A stretch of 42,741 nt of DNA from Candidatus Brocadiia bacterium (GCA_007131925.1 SLPQ01000065.1:1-42741), one strand, 5' to 3'; shown: positions 12,087 to 26,634, counted from the stretch's first letter. Notes: a model not told the origin generated them from the sequence alone. Translations and numbers: made by a program.

Positions 12087-14246
12087 CTATCGGCTGATGG
12101 CAGTTTGAAAGTCATCTTCGGTAAGAAACTCGACGCGCCCGTCAACGTAGAGCACATATCTGCCATCGGCTCGGATGCCCTCACGTTCGTACACCAGTAT
12201 GGACCTTGCCGGAGAGTGTATGGTCCGGCCTTTCACGTAGCGATAGTCGGACGAAGCCGTCGAGGCGCCTGCTCTTGGCGCGCCGAGCATTTCCGGCGCC
12301 ACCGCCTCCTCCAGCGTATCAGGGAAGCGCCCGTGCCTTGTTGTGGTAGCCAGGTGCAGGAGTCCGCCTATCTTGAGAAGCCGCTGCCTGTCGGCAGAGG
12401 CGCTCTCTCCCGGCGAGAGGCCCGGCTGGGCGGCCACCTGGCGAGCTGCATTTGCCCTGGCGATGCCTATGATGGCCGGGCCGGCCAGGCCCGCAATCCC
12501 GCAGGGGCTGTACACCTGGAGCTCGATGAGGCTTCCATTGGTGGTTGCAGCCATGGCTATGCCGTCGATATGCCTCTTGAGGCGAAAGGCCGGTGGTATG
12601 TCGGCGCTGCTGAAGGACAGCCGTTCGTCGTAGTATGCCCTGTCTATCTCGGAGCCGACACCGGCAAGGACATGCTCGTAGGCTATGTCGATGATGTGAT
12701 CGAGGTTAAAGTAAGCCAAATGGGAGACGTCCGCAGCCAGGGCGCTTCGTGCTCGCGAATAGCCTGCGCTGTCGGCTATGGATGCACTTGGAGCTATCAC
12801 GCGATCAAAGGCGGCTCGCAGGCTCTCCCTGCTTTTGGCGCAGACAAGGTAGCCGCCGCCGACCGTCAGGGATGGTGAAGGCCCGCCGGCGCCACCGGAT
12901 ACTAAGGAATACACGCGCTGGTTGCCGAGCATGGAGATTTCGAGCCTGGCCGAACGGCTCCCGGACGCCGCAAGCGGCGAGAGAAATTCGGGATCGGCCT
13001 CGGCATAAGCTGCGATCTTGCGCAGGGCCTCACGAAGGGCCGCCTCATTGCTGACCTCGACCAGAGTCACGCGGCTTAAACCAGCGCCGCTGATCAGAGC
13101 CATGACATCCCCTGACGCCGATATCCTGTAATAACCGATGGCCGCCTTTCCAAGAGAACCTATGACATCGCGGCGAAAGTTGACACCGGCCGACTGCTGG
13201 AGCCGCCTTGTCAGCGCATCCGGGTCAAAGCCGCCGTCTCCGGAGGTCGCCCTGAATAGACGCAGCGCCTCATCCCAGAGTCGTGCAGGGTCGCTCATTC
13301 GCGCGCCGAAAAAAACCGCGTCCCGCGGAACAACCGACAGGCGCCTTTCCGAGAAAGGCTCGCTTCCCACCATCTCCAACAGCCTCGAATCCTCCGAGCG
13401 CATCGAGACGAAGATACGATCGACGACACCTGAGCGGTCAAAACCGCTCTCCATGATTACTGATTCTATCTCATCGAGCCCGACCATGCCGATAAGGCCC
13501 GGAAGATCGAAGGGCACCCCGTCCGATGCCTCCCCTTTCAACCTCTCCACCAGCTCAGGAAAGTCAAGATATGCACGCAGTACACCCGATCCCTCGGCCA
13601 GGACCTCCCGAGCGTTGATGAAACGGGTCGATGCACTCAGGCTGCCGGCGGTCGAGGAGGCATTTCGACGGTCAATCGCCCCGAGCACAGCGTACCTGGA
13701 GCCCATCACAAGCAGGCCGTCAACGATGGCAGCGTGCCTGCCATCCACGCCCGATATATTCACCATCACCCCAGAGACCTGTATCCTGGTAGGGGGCATG
13801 CCCCGGTCGGCTTCTGCCGCATAGAGGCTATTGAGAAAATCCCACCCCGCCGCTTCCCGCTCGCCGATCTGGGCGACTACAAGGTGTTCAAAGCCCTCGT
13901 CAGCAGGAGAAAAGCCGATCGCGGCACCGCCTTTAATCGAGCCGACCATTTCGAGAAATCTCCCGACCACCTCAGGGGCGCTGCCGGTGCTCTCGCCCTC
14001 TTGCGACTCAAGGGAAAGCCTGATGCTCTTGGTCGAGTCGTCCTGCCATAGCGCCCAGAGGCCGGTATCCCTGGCCTTTTCGATGGCCGCCGGCACACTC
14101 GGACATTCTACGAAAAGGACGGTGTCGGCGGGAAAGAGCTGTGCCAGGGGCCTTGCCGGATGTAGCTCTTGAGCAAAGCCGGTTATAGCACAAGCGCACG
14201 CCACGACCATGAGCAGGCCGGATCGAAAATACGCCGGGAGCCGCAT
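12087..14246 (-). CDS. Large exported protein (DUF3352-like N-terminus) with a C-terminal pilin-like H-X9-DG-type module
   Basis: Signal peptide from ATG 14246, LFPADTVLFVE start typical of DUF3352-like repeats, TM-like GIAGLAGPAIIGIA, then LKIGGLLH..GRFPDTL..DYRYV..LVYE..GRYVLYVDGRVEF. Confidence 0.7.
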   Translation of the reverse strand: MRLPAYFRSGLLMVVACACAITGFAQELHPARPLAQLFPADTVLFVECPSVPAAIEKARDTGLWALWQDDSTKSIRLSLESQEGESTGSAPEVVGRFLEMVGSIKGGAAIGFSPADEGFEHLVVAQIGEREAAGWDFLNSLYAAEADRGMPPTRIQVSGVMVNISGVDGRHAAIVDGLLVMGSRYAVLGAIDRRNASSTAGSLSASTRFINAREVLAEGSGVLRAYLDFPELVERLKGEASDGVPFDLPGLIGMVGLDEIESVIMESGFDRSGVVDRIFVSMRSEDSRLLEMVGSEPFSERRLSVVPRDAVFFGARMSDPARLWDEALRLFRATSGDGGFDPDALTRRLQQSAGVNFRRDVIGSLGKAAIGYYRISASGDVMALISGAGLSRVTLVEVSNEAALREALRKIAAYAEADPEFLSPLAASGSRSARLEISMLGNQRVYSLVSGGAGGPSPSLTVGGGYLVCAKSRESLRAAFDRVIAPSASIADSAGYSRARSALAADVSHLAYFNLDHIIDIAYEHVLAGVGSEIDRAYYDERLSFSSADIPPAFRLKRHIDGIAMAATTNGSLIELQVYSPCGIAGLAGPAIIGIARANAARQVAAQPGLSPGESASADRQRLLKIGGLLHLATTTRHGRFPDTLEEAVAPEMLGAPRAGASTASSDYRYVKGRTIHSPARSILVYEREGIRADGRYVLYVDGRVEFLTEDDFQTAISR

Positions 14247-14442
14247 TTTAAGCCTCCTGATAGAAGCCCAACAGCAAACGTTCCTGTCTTTGAATATAGC
14301 ACAGCCTTTGCACGTCGGCAAGAACGGGCAATCGTGCTTGTGCCGGCTCACAGCCAATAAATTGTTGAATTTGACCCTTGCGTGATATAAATTTGGTCTG
14401 CTCTAACCAGCAGGTACGGCCGGCGACCCCGGAGGTATACGG

Positions 14443-15645
14443 ATGAAAGAGTGGTGCGCTGCGCTTGTCTTGTGGCTGTCTGTGGCGGCGACGGCCGCTC
14501 CAGGTGCACTCGTGGTGGCGGATTTCGAGGAGCCGCAAGAGTTTCGCATCGCTGAAAGCGTGGCAGGATCCCTCAGGTACGAGTTTGCCAGTGAAGAGAA
14601 CAGGGGGCACTTTCTGTGCGTGGAGTTTACACGCCTGCAAAACTCCGGCTTCGCATATATCTACCTGCCCATAGCGGACGCGCTCAGCGGGTCTGCCGAA
14701 GATTACGACGGCATATCTTTCATGGTCCGAGGCGATGGTTCGAGCACGTTCGGGACAGTAGAGATGCGCTTTGACGGCTTTGTGAACATTTTTCAGGCGG
14801 TCTTTCCGCTCGACTGCACGGAGTGGCGCCGCGTGGATATACGTTGGGACGAGTTTTTCCAGATGAACGACGGCGTTCGAAAGGCCGAGATGAACTGGGA
14901 CACGCTGAACCGCTTCGCTCTCGGCTCGAGAGGGATGTGGGGCTCATGCTCCTACGCCATAGACGATATTGCACTGGCCTCAATAGAACCTCGCGAGCCA
15001 CGGCAGGCTTACCGGGGAATGGCCCGGCTCGAGCGTACCGGCGAGAAACTGCGCAAAGAAGGTGCACAGCTGACGATCGCGGCGCTGGGCGACTCTATCA
15101 CTTTCGGCACAAGGTTGCCGGCGGATGAAAGGGAGGATGCGACATATCTCGCGCGCCTGGCGGCCGGCATCGAAGAGCGCTTTGCCGGCGCAGCAGTCAA
15201 GACGGTCAACGCCGGCGTTGGAGGCGATACGATAGCCCGGGGGATCGTGCGCATCGGCCACCAGGTCGCATATCATGAACCTGACCTGGTGCTCGTGTAT
15301 CTCGGCGCCAACGACGCCATGTACGCACTGCCCGAAAGCCGTGTTAGACATGCGATGTCGCTGCTGGTCGAAAAACTCCTGGAAACCACCGATGCAGACA
15401 TACTCCTGCTCGGCCCCACCCAGATCCTGGGCAAGCCCGGTCTGCCCGAGTCCTACGGGCGGATTTACGCCAGTATAGCGCGCGAACGTGGCGTGGCGTA
15501 TTTCGATCTTTCAGAAGCCCTCTCGATGCTGACGGAGTCGGATTTCAGGAACGCGCTGGCCGATAATGTGCACCTTTCAGCCTATGGGCACAGGGTCATA
15601 GCCGATGCGATACTTGATTTTGTCGCTGAAAGGGTCCAGCGCTGA
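14443..15645 (+). CDS. Secreted SGNH/GDSL hydrolase with an N-terminal CIA30/CBM11-like domain
   Basis: Signal peptide; VADFE...YDGISFMVRGDG...IDDIAL (galactose-binding-like domain); SGNH blocks LGDSIT, NAGVGGDT, GAND, DNVH. Confidence 0.88.
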   Translation: MKEWCAALVLWLSVAATAAPGALVVADFEEPQEFRIAESVAGSLRYEFASEENRGHFLCVEFTRLQNSGFAYIYLPIADALSGSAEDYDGISFMVRGDGSSTFGTVEMRFDGFVNIFQAVFPLDCTEWRRVDIRWDEFFQMNDGVRKAEMNWDTLNRFALGSRGMWGSCSYAIDDIALASIEPREPRQAYRGMARLERTGEKLRKEGAQLTIAALGDSITFGTRLPADEREDATYLARLAAGIEERFAGAAVKTVNAGVGGDTIARGIVRIGHQVAYHEPDLVLVYLGANDAMYALPESRVRHAMSLLVEKLLETTDADILLLGPTQILGKPGLPESYGRIYASIARERGVAYFDLSEALSMLTESDFRNALADNVHLSAYGHRVIADAILDFVAERVQR

Positions 15646-15687
15646 TGTGAAAAACCCCTGTGCTGCACTCGCCGGTGGGCAGCGTTT

Positions 15688-17808
15688 TCAAACGCCGAAC
15701 GAACGTCGTATGTTCTGGCGCAACCTCATATAGATGACCTCCCATAGGCGCCGATGTCCGTAATCGATCCTGGCCCTGCCGGCCATACCGGGCTTGAGGG
15801 GGCGAGAGGGGTCATCATTAGGCAGCTCTATTGCGATCTCAAAGGTAGCATCGACCGCCACGATGGCGCGTCGGATGTCCGAACGTGTCTGCACACCGCC
15901 GCCGGCCCTGTCGGCAAGGACCGGGCTGGGCAGGAAACGGCGCGGCGCCGCGGATATCTCCGTGACAACGCCTGCAAAGGACTCCCACGGATAGGCCCTG
16001 AGAGTAATGCGGGCCCGCGCATCTTCGGTGACAAACGGAAGGTCCTTTTCAGTGACGGCTACGGTGACCTTCGTCGAGGTGATGTCAGCAAACTCCATGA
16101 GGAAACCGCCCTCGCGGATGTACTTGCCGACGAGGCTGTAATTGGGTGGAGTCAGGATGACGCCGTCGAATGGCGCTCGAATCGTCAGGTCCTCGATACG
16201 CTCGCGGATGTCAGCTATTCTCAGCTCCACTTCGCGCTTTGAGTCGAGGTGGTATTCGCGCGTGGCAAGGTCGCCGGTCGCTGCGGCGTAGTCCGCCTGC
16301 ATCTGGTGGCTCTCGGCAATACCAAGCATCTCTTGCAGCGCGATCTCGAGCCTGGGGTTTTCCAAGCGGGCGATGACAGCGCCGGCGGCGACCGGCCGGC
16401 CCGGCTCAAAGGGCGTCTCTGCAAGTACACCATCGCTGGCAGCATACACCGTGTGCATGCGTGCGGGAGTTATGACGCACGGCGCCGTTACAGAATATCC
16501 CATGTCATGAAAGAAGAGAAAGTAGGCTCCGGCAGCGGCTATCGCAAGTATCACTGCGATACGACCCGGATTTACGCTGGCCGGACGGCCCTTTCGCCTG
16601 GCGATGTACACTGCAAGCCGGATGATGGGCACCAGCAGAAGTCCGTATACGGTGGTGATCATGATCCAGACGCCCAGCGGCGGGATGCGCCACAAGAGCC
16701 CCCTGACGATCCGGTACATAATGTAGATGATCCAGATCGACGAGGCCGTGCCGTAGACGAGTTTGATGGCATTTTCACGCGAGAAGATCGAGGCTCCCGG
16801 CACCTTGAGACCCAGGATGTAGCGCTGCACGAAGCGGCGGACGTACTGCACCGAGCTCGAGCGCAGGTTTGGTATGGCGAGTATGTCGCTGAGGATATAG
16901 TAGCCATCAAACTTCATGAGCGGATTGCCGTTAAAGAGCAGAGACGATATGCCCGCCAGGATCATGATCCGGTATGATATGGCCCTCGCCACACCCGGCG
17001 CACTGGCCCACCAGACCACAGCCGCGACCGAGGCGATGATAAGCTCAGTAATGATGCCGGCAGCGCTTATATAAAACTTGCGAGAATGCTTGTCCTGTAT
17101 CCATGCGTCGCTGATGTTGCAGTAAAGGCACGGCGTGAGCACCAACACGAGTATGCCCACCTCGTGGACTTCCCCGCCGAAGTACTTGCACGTGAAGCCG
17201 TGGCCGAGTTCGTGAAGGGTCTTGACAAGAATGAACATCAGCCAGAAGAAAAGCAGGTTTTCTGCGGTCAGCAGGTCTGCAAAGCCACCAGTGGCTTCAC
17301 TGAGGTTGCCGAAAAATATCACCAGAGCCCATGCAAAAAGGCCCCCGTAGATCGCAAGGGCCGGCCGCGACCACAGGAAACGCAGGTAAGGCATCGCCCT
17401 GGTGAAGATCCGGTCCGGATCGTAAAGCGGTATCTTGATGAAGAGTATCCGCTTGATCTGCTCCCACAGGCTCTTCTGCCTGCGCCGAAGCACCGCCAGG
17501 CGGTATAGTGACTCCGACTGGTTGGGAAGGACATTTTCGAAAAAGTTCGCCGTGCCAAGCTGCTGGATAAATGCCTGCAGCTCCTCATCGTCGATTTCGT
17601 GGCCGAGCTGCTCGAGGCGCGCCTTGACCTCGTCGATGGAGGTCTCCCCGTCCAGCATCCTTGTTATTGCGTACTCGGTGGGCATCAGCCGGAAGTAGCG
17701 CAGGCTGATGGGATCCTTGACAACATAAACAAGCTGGCCCTGCTGGTTTTGCGTCGATATCACCAGGTCGTCGCGGACCTTGAGCTGCTGCCAGTGGCTA
17801 AGCTTCAT
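15688..17808 (-). CDS. PqqD-like domain + M50 site-2 metalloprotease + HlyD/membrane-fusion protein fusion
   Basis: N-terminal VVKDPISLRYFRL...LDGETSIDEV (PqqD-like); HELGH zinc motif and NGNPLMKFDGYY within TM segments; C-terminal IRAPFDGVI and LKPGMAGRARI (MFP). Confidence 0.88.
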   Translation of the reverse strand: MKLSHWQQLKVRDDLVISTQNQQGQLVYVVKDPISLRYFRLMPTEYAITRMLDGETSIDEVKARLEQLGHEIDDEELQAFIQQLGTANFFENVLPNQSESLYRLAVLRRRQKSLWEQIKRILFIKIPLYDPDRIFTRAMPYLRFLWSRPALAIYGGLFAWALVIFFGNLSEATGGFADLLTAENLLFFWLMFILVKTLHELGHGFTCKYFGGEVHEVGILVLVLTPCLYCNISDAWIQDKHSRKFYISAAGIITELIIASVAAVVWWASAPGVARAISYRIMILAGISSLLFNGNPLMKFDGYYILSDILAIPNLRSSSVQYVRRFVQRYILGLKVPGASIFSRENAIKLVYGTASSIWIIYIMYRIVRGLLWRIPPLGVWIMITTVYGLLLVPIIRLAVYIARRKGRPASVNPGRIAVILAIAAAGAYFLFFHDMGYSVTAPCVITPARMHTVYAASDGVLAETPFEPGRPVAAGAVIARLENPRLEIALQEMLGIAESHQMQADYAAATGDLATREYHLDSKREVELRIADIRERIEDLTIRAPFDGVILTPPNYSLVGKYIREGGFLMEFADITSTKVTVAVTEKDLPFVTEDARARITLRAYPWESFAGVVTEISAAPRRFLPSPVLADRAGGGVQTRSDIRRAIVAVDATFEIAIELPNDDPSRPLKPGMAGRARIDYGHRRLWEVIYMRLRQNIRRSFGV

Positions 17809-18644
17809 TCCATGGTCTCGGCCTGCGCGGTCTGTACAGGCAAAACATAAAGCTCGGCATTCATGCCAGGTATCAGTGCACCGTCGGAGTTGTCCACTAC
17901 GGCCCTTATGCCGAAGGAGCGCCCCCCCACATCAGCAACGGGCGCGATGAAGGTCACATCCCCTTCGAAGACGGTTTCGTCGCAAGCCGCAGTCTTTACC
18001 TCCACCCTCATGCCATGCCGCAGCTCCGCCCGGCGCGCGATGTGGGGATGTGCCTCTATATAGACCTTACTTGTGTCAATCAGGTGGAAAAGGCGCTTGT
18101 CGAGAGGATAAGTGGTTTCGCCAAGCTCGATGTACTTTTTTGCGACTATGCCGCTGAAAGGCGCACGCACGGTGTACTCATCGAGCGTAGCCTTTCTGAG
18201 CTCCGCGATGAGCCTCAACTGCTCTAGCTCCTGCCGCTGGGCCTCGACCTGGATGCGGGAGACTTCGAAGTTGTACTCGGCCCTTTCAAGATCCACCTGA
18301 GAGTCGGTGCCTCGCTGGGTAAGGGTGGTGGCGCGCTCAAGGTCTCTTTTGGCCTGCTCGAGGCGCACCTCGGCGGACTTCAGGGCCGCACGATTGCCTG
18401 CCTGCATGACGGCAAGGTCATAATTGGCCTGCTGCACACTCGCGGCGAGCCTGCATAGCACGTCGCCCTCCTCGACCCGCTGGCCCTCCTCGACCAGTAT
18501 CTCCGCGACGATGCCTACTACCTCGGCATTTACGTGAGAAGAGCGCACGGCCTGCACGGTAGCTCTGATGGCAGGCTCGTCGGCGGCCTTCGCACCCTCG
18601 GCCAGCAGCGCCGCCGCAAGAACCGCAAAGAATATCTTTCTCAT
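17805..18644 (-). CDS. Efflux RND/HlyD-type periplasmic adaptor (membrane fusion protein)
   Basis: Signal peptide from ATG 18644; GIVAEILVEEGQRVEEGDVL lipoyl half, coiled coil, VRAPFSGIV, LIPGMNAEL. The stop overlaps the next start (ATGA). Confidence 0.9.
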   Translation of the reverse strand: MRKIFFAVLAAALLAEGAKAADEPAIRATVQAVRSSHVNAEVVGIVAEILVEEGQRVEEGDVLCRLAASVQQANYDLAVMQAGNRAALKSAEVRLEQAKRDLERATTLTQRGTDSQVDLERAEYNFEVSRIQVEAQRQELEQLRLIAELRKATLDEYTVRAPFSGIVAKKYIELGETTYPLDKRLFHLIDTSKVYIEAHPHIARRAELRHGMRVEVKTAACDETVFEGDVTFIAPVADVGGRSFGIRAVVDNSDGALIPGMNAELYVLPVQTAQAETME

Positions 18645-18654
18645 GGTCGACACC

Positions 18655-20535
18655 TCAGAGAAAAAATGCCCGGAACCTTTCGATCGTCGTTCGAAAGAGC
18701 ACGTACAGGACATGTCGTCTTCCGGCCTCAATTGAGGCCGATCCGCTCACGCCGACCCGCAGCGCTTCGGTGGTTTCATCATCCATCGGCAGGCACCTGA
18801 CGACAAAGACGTTCTGGCCGGCCATGGGGCGCGTGGTGGGGCTTATGTGGTCGACCCGCCAGCGATAAACCACGTTGGGGGCGCCGCTGAGCGCAAACTT
18901 GACCGTATTACCCACCTCCACAAAGCGTATATCCCTCTCTTGGACCTCCACCTCGAGTACGAGCTGGGAGATATCCGCGATCTCAGTCAGGGGATCCCCG
19001 GCGTTCATAACCGAGTTGAGCGAGGCATTCAGCTGGTCTCGTGGGGTGACGATGAGTCCGTCAATGGGGCTTTTTATTTCCATGCCGGCGAGCCTCAAAC
19101 GGGCGTTTTCCAGCCTGGCGTCGAGGATGCTCAGCTCAATGTCGGCCAGGCTCGCCGCGGCCGGATTGGTCGCGCGCTTGATCTCACGGTCTGCCTCCTT
19201 GAGGTGCATCTGCAGCTCGATGTCCCTGATGGTGTTCAAGACCTCCCGCTGATCCATCACCGCGATCGTCTCCCCGGCCATGACAAAGTCGCCCTCTGTC
19301 TTGAGAAGCCGCTCTATCTTGCCCTGATAGCGAGGCGCGGCAAATGCGCTCACGCGCGGTGCCAGGCGGCACTCACCCCTTATAGTCAGGTCCCAACTTC
19401 CAAAGGCGAGAAATGCCACCGCCGCTGCAATCAGCGCTACCTTCGCCAGAAATCCGATCCTCTGCGACCCGGTAGCCCGTTTCTTTATGGCGGCCGCCTT
19501 GCGGACAAGGCGGATGCCAGGCATCTTTTCGACCTCGCGCGCCCTCAGAAGGGCACCGGCCGACGACCTGCAAAAGCCCTGCACGAGGGAAAAGTCCTGC
19601 GGCGAATGCCCCTGCTGACTGCGCCGCTCAAAGCCCATGACCGCCAGAAGCGAGTCTTGATGCTCCAGGCGCATAAACAGCACCGACTTGTACTCGCTGG
19701 CCTCAAAGTACAGCCGCAGCCTCTCGCGCAGGTCTTCATCCTCCACCTTTTCGAGATATGCCGCGGTAAAGTGCCAGTCACCCCCTATGCGCGCCACCTC
19801 GGATACGAGCTGTCTTAAGTTTTGCACGGCCGCGCCCTGCTGCGAGACGTCGTCGATGCCGGATATGGCAGCTATGCGAAAGCCCGTGCGCGTGGGCAGC
19901 GCCACAAAGGTCCTGTCGAAAAAGACCATCTCCCGGACGCGGTTGGCCAGTGTAAAGGCCATCCGTTCAAGATCATCTGCGCATGCGAGCTCGCTTTCGA
20001 TCTCGGCCAGTTTGGCAAGCCTGCCGGCGGTCTCCTTGCTGCCTCGCAGCTGCAGGTTGGCGAAATATACCACCAGGTATACGCAAAGGCTCTGAAGCGT
20101 GTGAACGTCGTCCCGCGCGTAGGCGGCGTTTTCCCGCTTTCGCCGCGCGAAAAGCACCACCGCCTGCGTGGTCTCATCAAGCTCGACCGGCACGGCTATA
20201 AGGCAGACATCCTGCAGCTCCTGGACCTCCTCACCCTCCTCCGGATAGTACAATACGGGCTGCTTCTGCTCGATTGTGCGGTAGACGATGCGGGTGATGT
20301 TTTCCTCGCTGAGGCTGCTGAGAGGCCCCTCTTCTGGCAGGTGCGATGCCTTCGGCACGAGCTGGCGGTTCTTTGAATCATAGAGCCACAGACTGCCCCC
20401 CTCCGCGGCCATGCCGACATAGAGCATTCGGAAGAATTCCTTGAAGAACTCATCCGGACCAACGTCGCTACGCGCCAGGCGCGCCAGTCTGGCTGCTATG
20501 GGAAGTGTCTGTCTGCCGGTGGTTTCCTGCGCCAA
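18655..20535 (-). CDS. Tandem GAF-like domains + TM helix + HlyD/membrane-fusion protein
   Basis: TTG start after AGGAGG. N-terminal GAF-like region (GSLWLYD..LIAVPV..YARDDVHTL), TM FLAKVALIAAAVAFLAF, APRYQGKIERLLKTEGDFV, IKSPIDGLI, LRVGVSGSASI. Confidence 0.85.
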   Translation of the reverse strand: MAQETTGRQTLPIAARLARLARSDVGPDEFFKEFFRMLYVGMAAEGGSLWLYDSKNRQLVPKASHLPEEGPLSSLSEENITRIVYRTIEQKQPVLYYPEEGEEVQELQDVCLIAVPVELDETTQAVVLFARRKRENAAYARDDVHTLQSLCVYLVVYFANLQLRGSKETAGRLAKLAEIESELACADDLERMAFTLANRVREMVFFDRTFVALPTRTGFRIAAISGIDDVSQQGAAVQNLRQLVSEVARIGGDWHFTAAYLEKVEDEDLRERLRLYFEASEYKSVLFMRLEHQDSLLAVMGFERRSQQGHSPQDFSLVQGFCRSSAGALLRAREVEKMPGIRLVRKAAAIKKRATGSQRIGFLAKVALIAAAVAFLAFGSWDLTIRGECRLAPRVSAFAAPRYQGKIERLLKTEGDFVMAGETIAVMDQREVLNTIRDIELQMHLKEADREIKRATNPAAASLADIELSILDARLENARLRLAGMEIKSPIDGLIVTPRDQLNASLNSVMNAGDPLTEIADISQLVLEVEVQERDIRFVEVGNTVKFALSGAPNVVYRWRVDHISPTTRPMAGQNVFVVRCLPMDDETTEALRVGVSGSASIEAGRRHVLYVLFRTTIERFRAFFL

Positions 20536-20680
20536 GATAGCCTCCTGAAGCCCATAACTTATAGTAGTTTAAAACAACCAACTCAAAGTTCAAGTGCCGA
20601 TACTGTTGCATTGCAAAGCTTGACACAACGGGAATAATCGTTACACTGCTCATGTTCAATTTGAAGGAGCGATACAGATA

Positions 20681-20866
20681 GTGTATAATTCAATAATTGA
20701 CAGTGAACTTCTTCAAATCCTGGCCTGCCCGGCCTGCAGGGGCCCGCTCGCCGAAAAAGGCGGGCGGCTCTCATGCAGTACCTGCAGCCGCGTATATCCT
20801 GTAAGGCAGGGCATACCGATACTGCTCGAAGAAGAAGCCCTGCCGATTGAAAAAGGGCTGGATTGA
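20681..20866 (+). CDS. Trm112/UPF0434 family small zinc-binding protein
   Basis: LLQILACPACRGPL...LSCSTCSRVYPVRQGIPILL. SD GAAGGAG. Confidence 0.88.
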   Translation: MYNSIIDSELLQILACPACRGPLAEKGGRLSCSTCSRVYPVRQGIPILLEEEALPIEKGLD

Positions 20867-20896
20867 GAGCTGGCCAGCCGGCATGGAGCGTGCGAC

Positions 20897-21646
20897 TTGA
20901 AGGCCGTCATCTCTGACATTCACAGCAATATAGAAGCGCTTTCGGCTGTTCTGGACGACATTAAAGGCCGGGGCATCAGGGAGATAATATGCCTCGGAGA
21001 TATAATCGGATACGGCCCGAATCCCAAGGAATGCATTGACCTTGCCCGCGAGTTCAAGCTGACAATCCTCGGCAACCACGACGAGGCAGCGCTCTGGAGC
21101 GAGCAGACAGAGTCTTTCAACCCGATCGCCCATAGTGCTGTCGAATGGACCAGAGGCGTGCTCGAAGATGCCAGAGACTCATTTCGAAACAACAAGCGCT
21201 GGGGGTTTCTGGGAGAGCTTCAGCGCACCTTTTCTGAAGGCTCCAGTCTTTACGTACACGGCTCTCCGAGGCGGCCGGTAAGAGAGTACATATTTCCCGA
21301 GGATATCGCCAATAATGCCAAGATGTCGGATGTATTCGCCCAGATAGATCATATCTGCTTTATAGGACATACCCACATGCCGGGCGTTTTCACCGATGAT
21401 ATGACTTTCAAACCGCCCCAGGAAGTCTTCAACAAGTTTCAACTCAACGCCGCCAAGACAGTCGTGAACGTAGGGTCTGTAGGCCAGCCGCGTGACGGTG
21501 ACAATCGAGCCTGCTACGTGGTCCTGGATGGGGCAAAGGTGGAATGGGTCCGCGTCCAGTACGACTTCGAGGCCACCATGAAAAAGATTTACGAAGTCCG
21601 CGAGCTGGATAATTTCCTCGCCGACCGCCTTGCCGAAGGCAGGTAG
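20897..21646 (+). CDS. Metallophosphoesterase family protein (YfcE/MJ0936-like)
   Basis: ISDIHSN, LGDIIGYG, GNHD, VHGSP, GHTH, NVGSVGQPRDGD. Confidence 0.92.
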   Translation: MKAVISDIHSNIEALSAVLDDIKGRGIREIICLGDIIGYGPNPKECIDLAREFKLTILGNHDEAALWSEQTESFNPIAHSAVEWTRGVLEDARDSFRNNKRWGFLGELQRTFSEGSSLYVHGSPRRPVREYIFPEDIANNAKMSDVFAQIDHICFIGHTHMPGVFTDDMTFKPPQEVFNKFQLNAAKTVVNVGSVGQPRDGDNRACYVVLDGAKVEWVRVQYDFEATMKKIYEVRELDNFLADRLAEGR

Positions 21647-21672
21647 CCGCGCACCCGCTTTGAAGGATTGGA

Positions 21673-23604
21673 ATGGACAAGAGAACCGTTGCCGCCGTTG
21701 CCATCACCATTGCCTTTTTCGTGATATGGTCATGGCTGATCTTGCCGTACTTTGGAATAGGCCCAGCCCCTGTCGAGGATGAGACACCGGCTGTCGAGCG
21801 GGATGTCCCAGTCGATGAGCTGCCTGTCGAGCCGACACCTGCGGAGCCGGTTACGCCGCCTGTTGCAGTGCCGCCGGTCGAGCCGGTGCCTGAGAGAGAG
21901 GCAGCTGTCGCGCCGGACGAAGATGTAGATGTGATCAGCCCGGACTACGTCATACCGCCTGAATACAGGCAGGAGAACCTTCAGGATGCCCTGATCACCG
22001 TCGAGACCGACCTGCTCAGCGTTGACTTCACGGCAATGACCGGCTCGGTAAAGAGTGTAACTCTGAAGGAATACGAAGACTTTGAGAGAACCGGCAACCT
22101 CGTGCTGCTCGAGGATTTCACCGAGGGCATATTTCCCACTGAGATCGCCCAGATCGAAGGGCTTGACATCAGTGACCGCCTGTGGCGGCTCGAGCAGGAA
22201 CCTCTCGCCGACGAAGACGGCATAACGCGCGTTTCTTTTGCCACGATCCTTGAGCACGGCATTGCCGTGACCAAAACCTACATCCTGTATCCGGACAGGT
22301 ATGGATTTGCACTCCAGGTGCAAGTGGAAAACCTGCTCGACTCGACACGCCGCATTTCGTACGAAATCCTCGGCCCCACGGGCGTCCCCTCAGAGGACGT
22401 CGCAAAAAATGACGTCCAGGGAGTGCTCGCGACCGTGCCCGCCGAAGCCGGGCTCGAAGGCAAGATGGATGTCAGTATGCGTGCAGCGGCCAGCCTGATC
22501 ACCGAAGGAAGAAACAGGGGCCGACTTGTTACCGACCCCACTATGCGCGTCACCTTCGCCGGCGCTCTCAACAGGTATTTCGCATCCGTACTGCGCCCCT
22601 CCATCGACGTGCCTGTCGATAGGGCATGGAGCGACGCCTATTACGACAGCGCCCTGGGCATAACCGAGCTTGAGGGGCTCACCGCCGAAGATGCACGTCA
22701 CAGATACACTCCTGAGCAGCGGGGCAATATCGCAAGCTATTTTTACACCGCCGGCTCAGGCTTCGTGGTAAACACAGGTGAGCTTGCACCTTTCGGCAGC
22801 GCGGGGTCGGCTGTTGTGCACGACTACCTGATGTACAGCGGCCCGAAGGAGAGCCAGGCGCTGGCGGGTTTTGACACGGAGGCATTCAGGACGGGCTTTC
22901 CGGTGCTCCTGGACTACGGGATGCTCGAGCCGCTCGTCAAACTCATCCTGATACTCTTGCGCGCCTTCTATATCGCTATCCCCAACTGGGGTATTGCGAT
23001 TATTATCCTGACGCTCGTGATGCGCGGAGCCATGCACCCGCTGATGCGCAAGAGCCAGGTTTCCATGGCCAAGATGCAAAAGCTGCAACCGCAGATCAAG
23101 AAGCTCCAGGAAAAATACAAGAAGGACAAGCAGCGCCTTGGCCAGGAACAGATGAAGCTTATGAAGGAGTCAGGCGCAAACCCGCTTGGCGGCTGCCTGC
23201 CCATGCTTATACAGCTGCCTATCTTCTTCGCGCTTTACCGCTCGCTGATGCTGTCGATAGAGCTCAGACATGCCCCTTTCATCCTATGGATCAACGACCT
23301 AGCTCAGCCCGACAGACTGATGGAGCTGCCGTTTGTCCTGCCGCTTCTGGGAACCCCCTGGCTGAACCTGCTGCCGATAGCCATGGTAAGCTCCATGATA
23401 GTCCAGCAGCGCATGATGCCGAAGGGAGCTACGCCTGAGGCAGCCCAGCAGCAGCGGCTGATGGCATTTTTCATGCCTGTCTTCATAGGTTTCATACTGT
23501 ACAATCTCGCTGCCGGGCTCAACCTTTACATCTTTACCAGCACCGTGTTCGGCATTGCCGAGCAGTGGTGGGTGAAACGACACCTTGCCGCGCAGGAAGG
23601 CTGA
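21673..23604 (+). CDS. yidC: Membrane protein insertase YidC
   Basis: N-terminal TM helix, Pro/Glu-rich linker, large periplasmic domain, then NWGIAIIILTL, MQKLQPQIKKLQEKYK, NPLGGCLPMLIQLPIFFALY, WINDLAQPD. Confidence 0.95.
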   Translation: MDKRTVAAVAITIAFFVIWSWLILPYFGIGPAPVEDETPAVERDVPVDELPVEPTPAEPVTPPVAVPPVEPVPEREAAVAPDEDVDVISPDYVIPPEYRQENLQDALITVETDLLSVDFTAMTGSVKSVTLKEYEDFERTGNLVLLEDFTEGIFPTEIAQIEGLDISDRLWRLEQEPLADEDGITRVSFATILEHGIAVTKTYILYPDRYGFALQVQVENLLDSTRRISYEILGPTGVPSEDVAKNDVQGVLATVPAEAGLEGKMDVSMRAAASLITEGRNRGRLVTDPTMRVTFAGALNRYFASVLRPSIDVPVDRAWSDAYYDSALGITELEGLTAEDARHRYTPEQRGNIASYFYTAGSGFVVNTGELAPFGSAGSAVVHDYLMYSGPKESQALAGFDTEAFRTGFPVLLDYGMLEPLVKLILILLRAFYIAIPNWGIAIIILTLVMRGAMHPLMRKSQVSMAKMQKLQPQIKKLQEKYKKDKQRLGQEQMKLMKESGANPLGGCLPMLIQLPIFFALYRSLMLSIELRHAPFILWINDLAQPDRLMELPFVLPLLGTPWLNLLPIAMVSSMIVQQRMMPKGATPEAAQQQRLMAFFMPVFIGFILYNLAAGLNLYIFTSTVFGIAEQWWVKRHLAAQEG

Positions 23605-24462: not shown

Positions 24463-25422
24463 CTAAGCGCACCGGATGCGCCTGCGCCACCATGAGAGTA
24501 GCCCTGCAAGGCTCTCTTCGATAGGGGTTCTGCCGGGCTGCCAGCCCGTCCTGTAACGAAACTTGGTGTTATCCCCCACCACTACCGGCGTGTCCGACGG
24601 GCGCATCTTGGCCTGATCAGCGACAACCTCTATCTCGCAGGAGGCCATTTTAAGCAGAATCTCAAGAATGTGCCCAACTTCAACAGCTCTACCGCTGGCG
24701 ACATTGTATATCTCGCCCGCCTCGCCTTTCTGCGCCGCGGCCAGGTATGCACGCGCCACGTCGCGAACGTCGCTGTAATCCCGCATCGAACGAAGGTTTC
24801 CGACCGATATGCGCGGCGGGTCGAGGCCCGCTTCTATTCTCGCTACAGCCATTGCGAAGTCGCTTGGTGCAAAGCCCGGCCCCTGACGGGGTCCGGTGTG
24901 GTTGAAGGGGCGCAATATTACCACTGGCAGGGACTCCGTACGCCATCTTTCGAGGGCTATTATCTCACCTGCCGCCTTGGACGCTGCATAGGGGTTTGAG
25001 GGTTTCACCCGCTTGCTTTCACGTACCGGCGTATCATCGGGCCTGACGTGGCCGTAAACATCCGCCGATGATACGTGGACGATCTTCGAAAGCTTGCAGC
25101 GTGCAATTTGATAGTACAGGTTTGCAGTGCCGAAGGCATTGACCCGCACAGCCTCGGCGGGGCTTTTCAGGGAAAGGGGCACACTGGCAAGCGCGGCAAG
25201 GTGAAATACCCAGTCCGCCCTCAGGCTCGTCAGCGCAGCGGCGAGATCATCAGCGTTGCAGAGGTCCGCGCTGGCCAGGCGCAGACGTCCGGCAAAGCCA
25301 TCAAGTCGGGAGAGATCCTCGCCGGGACGCGCTATTCCGGTGACCTCCAAGCCCTCTTCCAGCAGCAGCTCTGCAAGGTGCGAGCCGGCAAAGCCCGCTA
25401 TGCCTGTTATGACAGCATGCAT
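24463..25422 (-). CDS. rmd: GDP-4-dehydro-6-deoxy-D-mannose reductase (Rmd)-like extended SDR
   Basis: ITGIAGFAGSHL, HLAALASV, SSADVYG, YAASK, RPFNHTGPRQ, GNLRSMRDYSDVRDV. Directly downstream of gmd. Confidence 0.8.
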   Translation of the reverse strand: MHAVITGIAGFAGSHLAELLLEEGLEVTGIARPGEDLSRLDGFAGRLRLASADLCNADDLAAALTSLRADWVFHLAALASVPLSLKSPAEAVRVNAFGTANLYYQIARCKLSKIVHVSSADVYGHVRPDDTPVRESKRVKPSNPYAASKAAGEIIALERWRTESLPVVILRPFNHTGPRQGPGFAPSDFAMAVARIEAGLDPPRISVGNLRSMRDYSDVRDVARAYLAAAQKGEAGEIYNVASGRAVEVGHILEILLKMASCEIEVVADQAKMRPSDTPVVVGDNTKFRYRTGWQPGRTPIEESLAGLLSWWRRRIRCA

Positions 25423-25423
25423 G

Positions 25424-26389
25424 TCACTTCTCACAGGACAGGCGTTCGAGGTCGGCTGCGACCATCATCTCCACCAGTCCGTCAAAATCAACTCGCGGGC
25501 GCCACTTGAGCTGCCTGTGAGCCTTTGAGGCATCGGCGATGAGATGATCCACCTCCGCCGGCCTGAAAAATGCATCATCTATGACCACGTGCTTTTCCCA
25601 GTCGAGGTCTGCCGCGGCAAAGGCCTTTTCCACAAAGTCGCGAACGCTGTGCGACTTTCCTGTCCCGACAACAAAATCAGACGGCTCGTCCTGCTGCAGC
25701 ATCAGCCACATGGCTCTGACGTAGTCACCGGCAAAGCCCCAGTCCCGGTGCGCATCAAGGTTTCCCAGATGCAGCTCGTCCTGAAGCCCCGCCCTGATGC
25801 GCGCGATGCCGTCGGTTATCTTTCGCGTCACAAACTCCCTGCCTCGCCGTGGCGACTCATGGTTAAAAAGTATCCCCGAGCATGCGAAGAGGCCGTACGA
25901 TTCACGATAATTCATCGTAATGTAGTGGCCATAAACCTTGGCTACACCGTACGGGCTGCGCGGATGAAACGGTGTGTCTTCGTTCTGGGGGACCTGGCGG
26001 ACCTTGCCGAACATCTCCGACGAAGATGCCTGGTAAAAGCGTATTCCAGGGTTTACGAGGCGCACCGCCTCGAGCATCCTCGTGACGCCGATGCCGGTAA
26101 ACTCCCCTGTAAGAACGGGCTGCACCCAGGAGGTGGGCACGAAGGACATCGCAGCGAGGTTGTAAAGCTCCTCCGGCTGGACCTCGCGCAGGATGCTTAT
26201 GATGGAGAGCTGGTCGAGCAGATCCGCCTGGTGAAGAATCAGCCGGGGCTTGAGATGCGCAATCCGCTCAAACTTCTCTGTGGACGAGCGGCGCACCATG
26301 CCGTGAACCTCATAACCCTCTTCCAGAAGAAGCTCGGCCAGGTATGAGCCGTCCTGGCCTGTAATGCCGGTTATGAGCGCCCTTTTCAT
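25424..26389 (-). CDS. gmd: GDP-mannose 4,6-dehydratase
   Basis: [58 protein letters not shown]. The start is one of three tandem ATGs (26389-26395). Confidence 0.96.
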
Positions 26390-26634
26390 CATCATTTCCC
26401 CCAAATAAAATTAACAGCCTGCACCGCGGTAGACGTCTTTGCAGCAGTCAGCGTAGTATACACTAAGCCGCGCCCTCTTGCATCAGAATAAGCCCCTTTG
26501 CCGCGCGCAGGCAGCGCGATTGCCCGGGAGCCGTGTATCGCCCCCTGCGCACAGTTGCGGCCCTGGAGGCTCGTGATTAAAATTATGACCTTAGGGCATG
26601 TTTTCACCTTCTTTTTTGCAGAGAGGCGATTTCT

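Follow-up and report, generated by a model that had tools for sequence, protein, structure and literature searches.

A three-gene locus of a Candidatus Brocadiia bacterium fuses a putative leader-binding intramembrane protease to a periplasmic adaptor and is associated with large leader-bearing proteins

Results

Genes and domains of the locus

We analysed a stretch of 42,741 nucleotides from a Candidatus Brocadiia bacterium (GCA_007131925.1, SLPQ01000065.1:1-42741; hereafter the window), which carries at positions 15,688 to 20,535 a module of three genes, g1, g2 and g3, with a possible role in the processing and export of large surface proteins. The three are tightly coupled open reading frames (ORFs) on the minus strand, as are all their domains described below. 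The first gene, g1 (18655..20535), encodes a 626-amino acid (aa) protein with two GAF domains, a transmembrane segment and a membrane-fusion protein (MFP, or periplasmic adaptor) domain. It starts with TTG, five bases downstream of an AGGAGG, and its TGA stop codon is followed by a 10-nt gap and the ATG of g2. Read from this ATG, g2 (17805..18644) encodes a 279-aa periplasmic adaptor with an N-terminal Sec-type signal sequence; an alternative longer frame from a TTG would overlap g1. The stop codon of g2 and the ATG of g3 overlap as ATGA, and g3 (15688..17808) encodes a 706-aa fusion of a RiPP recognition element (RRE; RiPPs are peptides made by the ribosome and modified after translation), an M50 intramembrane metalloprotease, a transmembrane segment and an MFP domain. 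A preliminary description of this DNA had claimed such a coupling of three genes, each with an MFP domain, and both the ORFs and the Pfam HlyD matches agree with it: HlyD_D23/HlyD_3 was found in all three proteins (E 4.7e-16 in g1, 7e-25 in g2 and 3.6e-13 in g3).

In g1 a single hydrophobic segment (residues 360-378) separates the GAF domains from the adaptor domain. GAF domain 1 (residues 28-154; 20074..20454) matched Pfam GAF_3 with an E-value of 2e-13 and, being N-terminal to the only transmembrane segment, would be cytoplasmic, and GAF domain 2 (residues 188-329; 19549..19974) matched Pfam GAF with 7.2e-7. The adaptor domain (residues ~389-615; 18691..19371) matched TIGR01730 (RND_mfp) as well as HlyD_D23 and HlyD_3, the TIGR01730 match (residues 389-610, E 3.4e-20) remaining under the curated cut-off. 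This cut-off was passed by g2, with 136.9 bits against 94.9, and a hydrophobic Sec-type N-terminus could be read from the g2 sequence. The C-terminal adaptor domain of g3 (residues 440-706; 15691..16491) is preceded by hydrophobic segments at residues 375-400 and 415-433 and matched HlyD_D23 (residues 450-619), HlyD_3 and TIGR01730 (residues 439-686, E 2.8e-17). Pfam and NCBIfam family searches of g1-g3 revealed neither an ATP-binding cassette (ABC) domain nor a C39 peptidase domain.

The N-terminal domain of g3 (residues ~9-91; 17536..17784) was assigned by a fold model and Foldseek. Compared with the sequences of the PDB, a 34-sequence profile of this domain retrieved PqqD (E 0.011), TfuB1, TbiB1, PqqCD and PaaA at E-values of 0.01-0.3 only. 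The AlphaFold2 model built from the same alignment (pLDDT 86.7) has three strands followed by three helices, and its top Foldseek match was the lasso-peptide RRE TbiB1 with its leader (template modelling score 0.73 on the target, root-mean-square deviation (rmsd) 2.8 Å); further matches were TfuB1, likewise a lasso-peptide RRE, PqqD, TigE, CteB, TruD/LynD, ThcOx, PbtF and MccB. The Foldseek E-values were weak for both g3 domains that were modelled, the best for the RRE domain being 3.4e-3. As the structural matches are leader-binding RRE domains, the preliminary assignment of a PqqD-like domain is upheld at the level of the fold, with marginal sequence similarity, and by its model the domain has an RRE (PqqD-like) fold.

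The following part of g3 (residues ~125-400; 16609..17436) is the membrane core of a site-2 protease (S2P, family M50), as indicated by NF041824, AlphaFold2 and VIA-align, and a precomputed domain list also assigns PF02163 to the protein. Its best family matches are RiPP leader peptidases, namely NF041824 (daptide_HExxH; E 7e-53, residues 28-393) and YydH/LiaK (E 1.5e-10). A fold search was needed, because a sequence profile of the core retrieved from the PDB MjS2P alone, at an E-value of 0.14. With the AlphaFold2 model of the core (pLDDT 85.4), the eight best VIA-align entries were all S2P enzymes (RseP from three species, SpoIVFB and MjS2P), with Z scores of 8.2-10.5 and rmsd values of 3.2-4.7 over 130-173 residues, and the next entry had a Z score of 4.4. 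S2P enzymes carry an HExxH motif and a downstream Asp ligand in a motif of the N-x-x-P-x-x-x-x-D-G type. In g3 we found the zinc-binding and catalytic motif HELGH (residues 199-203; 17200..17214) and the motif NGNPLMKFDG (residues 293-302; 16903..16932) with the third zinc ligand, D301. Residues H199, E200, H203, N293, P296 and D301 never vary in 90 relatives, and L297 is likewise invariant. The S2P site was thus rightly described as intact, and judging from these residues the protease is expected to be active.

The S2P fold, with RseP and SpoIVFB as the closest structures, could hint at regulated intramembrane proteolysis, in which the M50 domain would cut a membrane-tethered regulator upon a signal received through the GAF or periplasmic domains, and GAF domains are typical sensor modules. 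However, neither sigma nor anti-sigma genes are conserved next to the module, be it in the window or in the related loci, and both the three MFP domains and the link to leader-bearing proteins described below would be left unexplained. While g3 has in common with RseP, SpoIVFB and MjS2P the fold, the HExxH motif and the Asp ligand, it lacks PDZ and CBS domains, has an RRE at its N-terminus and an MFP domain at its C-terminus, and is not set in a regulatory-proteolysis gene context. We consider this explanation extremely improbable.

Occurrence of the module in related genomes

Homologues of g3 number more than 2138 and come mostly from Planctomycetota and Verrucomicrobiota. To learn about their gene context we used 80 fetched loci, and gene trios were counted in the 41 loci with enough flanking sequence. 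A GAF-MFP homologue lies beside the M50-MFP gene in 29 of the 41 loci, a plain MFP in 22 and a WD40-MFP in three. Of the 80 related loci, 19 contain a gene with a SecA_DEAD domain and 16 an OEP gene, and except for g1-g3 no gene of the window is conserved beside the module in these loci. The module is an accessory one: of 301 sampled genomes from the window's phylum 80 contained it, as did 56 of the 191 of high quality, frequently with two to four copies. The host genome assembly (3.03 Mb in 257 contigs, 91% complete) contains one copy, with g3 as a single-copy gene.

An outer-membrane channel could be provided from elsewhere, as eight OEP-domain matches lie on five other contigs of the host genome. 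Further MFPs are also encoded elsewhere in this genome. Together with the TIGR01730 score of g2, which exceeds the cut-off of the RND adaptor family, these genes would suit ordinary adaptors of an unlinked efflux pump of the ABC, resistance-nodulation-division (RND) or major facilitator type, the fusion to a protease being incidental. Against this, ABC ATPase homologues occur near the module in only three of the 80 loci, and no RND-sized polytopic protein was found nearby, the three non-module ORFs with at least eight hydrophobic segments all being shorter than 700 aa. The preliminary description had pointed out that a consistent pairing with ABC or RND pumps would speak against it, and there is no such pairing. 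In addition, the invariance of the M50 and RRE residues indicates that the g3 fusion is under selection. We therefore find the ordinary-adaptor explanation very unlikely.

The preliminary description had also mentioned a secondary SecA-DEAD protein as a frequent partner of such clusters. This does not hold for the host genome, where no secondary SecA_DEAD protein was found in the 91%-complete assembly and the sole match was a 937-aa canonical SecA, the housekeeping one, encoded on another contig. The window thus contains a minimal three-gene form of the module, with a SecA-like gene, an OEP gene and a substrate gene all absent in cis.

A leader motif in candidate substrates

Large genes located beside modules have an N-terminal pattern in common, L-E-x-L-E-x-R with I-A-P or x-L-L after it, which lies 10 to 80 residues from the start. 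The leaders are acidic, have basic residues ahead of the L-E-x-L-E-x-R core and, as read from their sequences, do not have a hydrophobic Sec-type core. The x-L-L form corresponds to the NCBIfam family LEPR-XLL (NF012209), which has a cut-off of 17 bits; among module-adjacent proteins that of locus L072 scored over it (28.2 bits), and those of L047 and L073 obtained 16.4 and 13.9 bits. In the host genome a profile of the leaders had exactly four matches at E<=10, all of the I-A-P variant and all heading frames of 700-1497 aa. By this profile we report four candidate substrate genes, located at G000:C41:30541-35034, G000:C63:4504-7749, G000:C181:1-2312 and G000:C243:10379-12481. No Pfam domain was found in the four proteins, and the only feature that they have in common beyond the leader is glycine-rich repeats, of a kind seen in beta-helical surface proteins. 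A fragment of a DDE transposase gene adjoins the candidate on C243.

To examine the association of leader and module we searched for a strict form of the pattern within the first 130 residues of frames of at least 200 aa. It was present in 17 ORFs, spread over 14 of the 80 related loci, where 0.4 would be expected by chance at the rate of the host genome, and looser forms of the leader were seen in two more loci (L070 and L027). Since several of the pattern-positive loci are close kin (L015/L016, L066/L068 and L008/L019/L023), they stand for about ten lineages. In the genomes of L047, L072, L015 and L039 the only genome-wide matches of the leader profile (1, 1, 2 and 2, respectively) were those beside the module; as the adjacent genes had been included in the profile, it is only the absence of other matches that is informative here.

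The association was also evident on a larger scale. Among 300 other genomes of the window's phylum, M50-MFP was found in 36 of the 41 leader-positive genomes and in 43 of the 259 leader-negative ones (odds ratio 36, Fisher 3e-19, uncorrected for relatedness). For 200 other genomes from the phylum of genome G301 the corresponding numbers were 13 of 14 and 33 of 186. When only genomes outside the training set of the profile were regarded, 12 of 67 leader matches in the window's phylum were located at most 13 kb from an M50-MFP match, where about 0.7 would be expected by chance, and so were seven of 25 in the second phylum, which amounts to 19 of 92 for both phyla (distances were worked out by hand from the match tables). 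By a hand count 35 of the 67 leader matches in the window's phylum head frames of at least 1000 aa, with lengths up to 11,600 aa, and in the second phylum leader-headed frames reach 19,216 aa. These analyses show a statistical and positional link between the module and leader-bearing large proteins.

The sizes of these frames also bear on another explanation, that the module serves the maturation and export of small RiPP-like peptides such as daptides or epipeptides, with the RRE-M50 part trimming the leader of a short peptide and the adaptors passing the peptide to an outer channel. This is in line with the RRE fold of the g3 N-terminal domain and with the RiPP leader peptidases that are the best family matches of the protease. 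Yet neither a short precursor ORF nor a modifying enzyme is seen beside the module in the window, there is no conserved cluster of small ORFs in the 80 loci, save DUF3467 in four of them, and the leader matches of the host all lie in long frames, as do many elsewhere. Hence, we regard RiPP-like maturation as highly improbable. The preliminary description had suggested that the protease recognizes and processes a leader peptide; for this there are now concrete leader candidates with genomic and modelling support, but the candidate substrates are large proteins encoded elsewhere and not small peptides.

Predicted complex of a leader with g3

We predicted the complex of g3 residues 1-440 (90-row alignment) with the first 45 residues of the protein encoded on C63 (18-row alignment). 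The complex obtained a score of 0.68 (0.68, 0.69 and 0.68 in the individual runs), compared with 0.31, 0.00 and 0.00 for three controls. Of 157 solved complexes 116 reach the mark of the tool, and so do two of 215 mismatched pairs; these counts are only a rough guide for custom alignments such as those used here. The runs shared at least 72% of their contacts, and the pLDDT of the leader partner was about 50. In the predicted interface, which involves leader residues 4-21, residues 7-10 are placed on the RRE strand 37-41 and against the helix 72-87, which is the classic RRE groove. The conserved Arg of the leader meets g3 residues 231-236 and Y304, where D234 is invariant and W236 nearly so, and the segment following this Arg is touched by H199, E200, H203 and residues 299-301. 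The model supports an arrangement in which the leader would lie in both the RRE groove and the protease site.

Surroundings of the locus and variants of the module

Upstream of g1 there is an intergenic stretch (20536..20680, no strand assigned) that presumably contains the promoter of the operon and is divergent from a small plus-strand ORF (20681-20866). This ORF of 61 aa, with two Cys-x-x-Cys pairs, lies just upstream of a metallophosphoesterase gene and leaves the intergenic stretch with ~145 bp; we take its product to resemble a small protein of the Trm112/zinc-ribbon type. The other neighbours in the window are unrelated genes of housekeeping type, encoding a GDSL lipase, the metallophosphoesterase, YidC, MutS and MnmE. 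Divergent from the GDSL lipase gene, a minus-strand gene at 12087-14357 encodes a 756-aa protein whose sole family match is a weak one to DUF3352. At 24463-26404, also on the minus strand, genes for a GDP-mannose 4,6-dehydratase and an NAD-dependent epimerase/reductase overlap, the usual pair of GDP-fucose type.

Sequences from environmental libraries matched the window as well. In metatranscriptome run X7, within window positions 15000-21700, three short contigs with at least 99% identity correspond to parts of the GDSL gene, g3 and g1 (15315-15519, 17094-17254 inside g3 and 19077-19271 inside g1). Since DNA can occur in metatranscriptome libraries, we did not count them as expression. Run X1, which is labelled soda lake metagenome, contains nearly the whole stretch and may be its source, and DNA fragments identical to the window are present in run X2 from a second study with the same label.

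Several variants of the module were encountered among the related loci. In the Gemmata-like loci L021, L034, L037, L043, L050 and L052 a protein of ~520-735 aa, encoded upstream of the M50-MFP gene, takes the place of the plain adaptor and combines an HlyD-type adaptor with a WD40 beta-propeller; such HlyD-WD40 beta-propeller proteins form cluster c6, from seven loci. Four verrucomicrobial loci encode a DUF3467 protein (93-131 aa) beside the module, just upstream of the GAF-MFP gene in L005, L015 and L026 and downstream of the M50-MFP gene in L048, and no counterpart was seen beside the module of the window. In a Tepidisphaera locus (L055:3978-8708) the GAF-MFP gene has directly upstream of it a frame of 1576 aa, whose C-terminal part is an HlyD-type adaptor domain. 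It would be a fourth, giant form of the adaptor, the N-terminal part of which may be over-called.

Discussion

Relation to known systems

The preliminary description had placed the three genes among clusters related to type I secretion. This proved correct, as they are the same trio that Kamneva et al. (2015, PLoS One, PMC4452313) described in the surroundings of secondary SecA_DEAD proteins of Planctomycetes, Verrucomicrobia and Proteobacteria and of a single species in each of Nitrospirae and Chlorobi. By their account the operon META1p2399-2402 of Methylobacterium extorquens AM1 is this module as well. In the available part of that paper the trio was termed related to type I secretion, the absence of an ABC transporter was noted and the function was left open; there, neither a substrate nor an RRE domain is named, and the main text uses the word 'substrate' a single time, where it comments on type I secretion in general. 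The two loci agree in their proteins (Peptidase_M50 with HlyD, GAF with HlyD, and HlyD/biotin-lipoyl), in the phyla and in that neither locus contains an ABC transporter. They differ in that the module of the window has neither a secondary SecA_DEAD gene nor an OEP gene in the locus.

The nearest characterized relative of g3 is the daptide protease MpaP/DapP, which consists, according to the accessible part of its description, of an RRE fused N-terminally to an S2P and removes a leader with the motif ELExMEAP (10.1101/2023.03.08.531785). Both proteins thus combine an N-terminal RRE with a site-2 protease, and the daptide motif resembles E-L-E-E-R-I-A-P of the host leaders. However, by the length of its model (379 positions) MpaP does not have the MFP domain that g3 has, the aminotransferase, methyltransferase and dehydrogenase genes of daptide loci are not found beside the module of the window, and the presumed substrates of g3 are proteins of 700-1500 aa and not peptides.

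The leader pattern has likewise been met before. It is the same motif as the planctomycete N-terminal 'export signal' RRLxxExLExRxLLA of Studholme et al. (2004), as cited in PMC8567305, and in T. immobilis it was reported on 52 proteins, including eight of the ten longest (PMC8567305); the part of that article open to us names no export machinery for proteins with the motif. Our candidates share with the 'export signal' and with LEPR-XLL the core pattern at the start of very large proteins of surface type, and the difference is that the host leaders are of the I-A-P variant. Giant proteins of a green sulfur epibiont carry LEPRxLL at their N-termini and are said to lack known transport signals, and a recently acquired secA (Cag_1676), which is a lead only, is among the genes co-expressed with them, namely with two of the giants that carry LEPRxLL (10.64898/2026.03.19.712371, of which a portion was at hand).

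Compared with canonical type I secretion, the three MFP domains of g1-g3 provide the adaptor component. The ABC component of the inner membrane is not encoded by g1-g3 or the flanking genes, the only genes of the host in which ABC exporters were looked for, and the outer-membrane factor is absent from the window, with OEP-domain proteins being encoded elsewhere in the genome. In peptidase-containing ABC exporters of the colicin V or bacteriocin type, the exporter's own peptidase recognizes and cuts an N-terminal leader, and an MFP and a TolC-type channel complete the system. The logic that we propose for g1-g3 is the same, but they have no ABC or C39 domain, and an RRE would recognize the leader, which an intramembrane metalloprotease would cut.

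Proposed mechanism and its evaluation

We propose that g1-g3 are the inner-membrane and periplasmic core of a leader-dependent, type-I-like machine that processes and exports large surface proteins, a reading that we consider probable by a little. The substrates would be large surface proteins that start with a short acidic leader, in which basic residues are followed by L-E-x-L-E-x-R-(I-A-P or x-L-L), and in the host they are likely the products of the four unlinked genes on C41, C63, C181 and C243. In the modelled first step, the leader would be bound by the cytoplasmic RRE of g3, lining up as an extra strand between strand 3 and helix 3 of this domain. The segment directly behind the conserved Arg would then reach into the zinc site of the site-2 protease to which the RRE is fused, and the leader would be removed, probably by a cut after the A-P pair, in analogy with the daptide RRE-S2P protease. 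As suggested by their domain families and by the OEP genes of related loci, the adaptor domains of g3, g1 and g2 may form a duct through the periplasm that leads to an OEP/TolC-type channel, the gene of which lies elsewhere in the genome. On the cytoplasmic face, the two GAF domains of g1 might regulate or dock; the ligand gating that the preliminary description had suggested for them is purely conjectural.

The main alternative is processing alone, in which the RRE-M50 protein would act as a peptidase or maturation factor devoted to the leader-bearing proteins, the latter would leave by Sec, by an unlinked ABC-type type I system or by another route, and the MFP domains would be mere periplasmic scaffolds or anchors. 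All the evidence that ties the leader to the RRE-M50 part fits this equally well; moreover, an inner-membrane transporter or ATPase is not linked to the genes in the window, no second SecA was found in the genome, and S2P enzymes are proteases, not channels. On the other hand, three separate MFP domains are conserved together, the OEP genes and the SecA-like ATPases of the related loci (16 and 19 of 80) are hard to explain without transport, and the leaders are devoid of a hydrophobic Sec-type core. On balance, we judge processing without export to be unlikely. As for the non-canonical secretion that the preliminary description had suggested, the MFP domains and the OEP genes of related loci give it a basis, and secretion itself is inferred.

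Several observations weigh against the processing-and-export proposal. None of the four host leaders is matched by NF012209, with whose family they share just the core L-E-x-L-E-x-R, and no Pfam family for the leader was found with the 12 N-termini tested. Around the four host leader genes there are no secretion genes; their neighbours are unrelated and the genes are unlinked to the module. The genes next to g1-g3 in the window include neither an ABC or RND pump nor an OEP protein or a leader-bearing gene, as the preliminary description had also stated for pumps, outer-membrane channel and substrate, and an ATPase is not linked there either. The family assignments of g3 fall short of their thresholds, as the N-terminal domain obtained 14.4 bits (E 0.048) with Pfam PqqD (PF05402; gathering 23.4), the protease 26.1 bits (E 6e-6) with Peptidase_M50 (PF02163), just below the cut-off of 27.2, and the match to NF041824 180 bits, where the equivalog cut-off is 300. 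No leader match at E<=0.01 was obtained in 43 of 79 module-positive genomes, with a profile that is short and only ~24-36 candidates scored per genome, and six leader-positive genomes (G085, G098, G116, G138, G201 and G385) had no module match. The 'invariant' columns of the leader profile are so by construction, because sequences were chosen beside modules and the pattern fixes E, E and R; lineage bias is also possible in this profile, and related genomes are not independent. The score of the predicted complex may in part reflect likeness to known structures, since RRE-leader complexes have been solved. Finally, we know of no S2P that acts as a protein-conducting channel.

More tentatively, and as a proposal that we ourselves find doubtful, the trio might be the core of an unnamed secretion system of diderm bacteria. 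An acidic leader read by the RRE, in the manner of RiPP biosynthesis, would select giant surface proteins and be clipped by an S2P fused to a periplasmic duct; no ABC transporter would take part, and the S2P-MFP and GAF-MFP proteins would be the inner-membrane station. The energy for such a system might come from a SecA-like motor in genomes that have one and otherwise, as would be the case here, from the housekeeping SecA or the proton-motive force.

Implications

Locus and motif have each been in print before, and a literature search, with most subscription journals outside its reach, brought up no publication connecting the leader motif with the M50/MFP/GAF locus. What is new from the window is the minimal form of three genes, whose presumed substrates are unlinked, the support of RRE and S2P by their folds, the likeness to daptide leaders, the counts in two phyla and the modelled interface. 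The minimal form sets bounds on what the core machine needs. The link predicts that the RRE binds the leader, that cleavage occurs near the A-P pair and that surface proteins are lost in mutants. It would join two orphans, a motif found on many of the largest bacterial proteins and a widespread envelope locus of three to five genes without a known substrate. The unnamed secretion system considered above, if it exists, would supply the planctomycete and LEPR-XLL 'export signal' with its machine and the locus of Kamneva et al. with its substrate. With the link, an RRE domain would be at work outside RiPP biosynthesis, in protein export.

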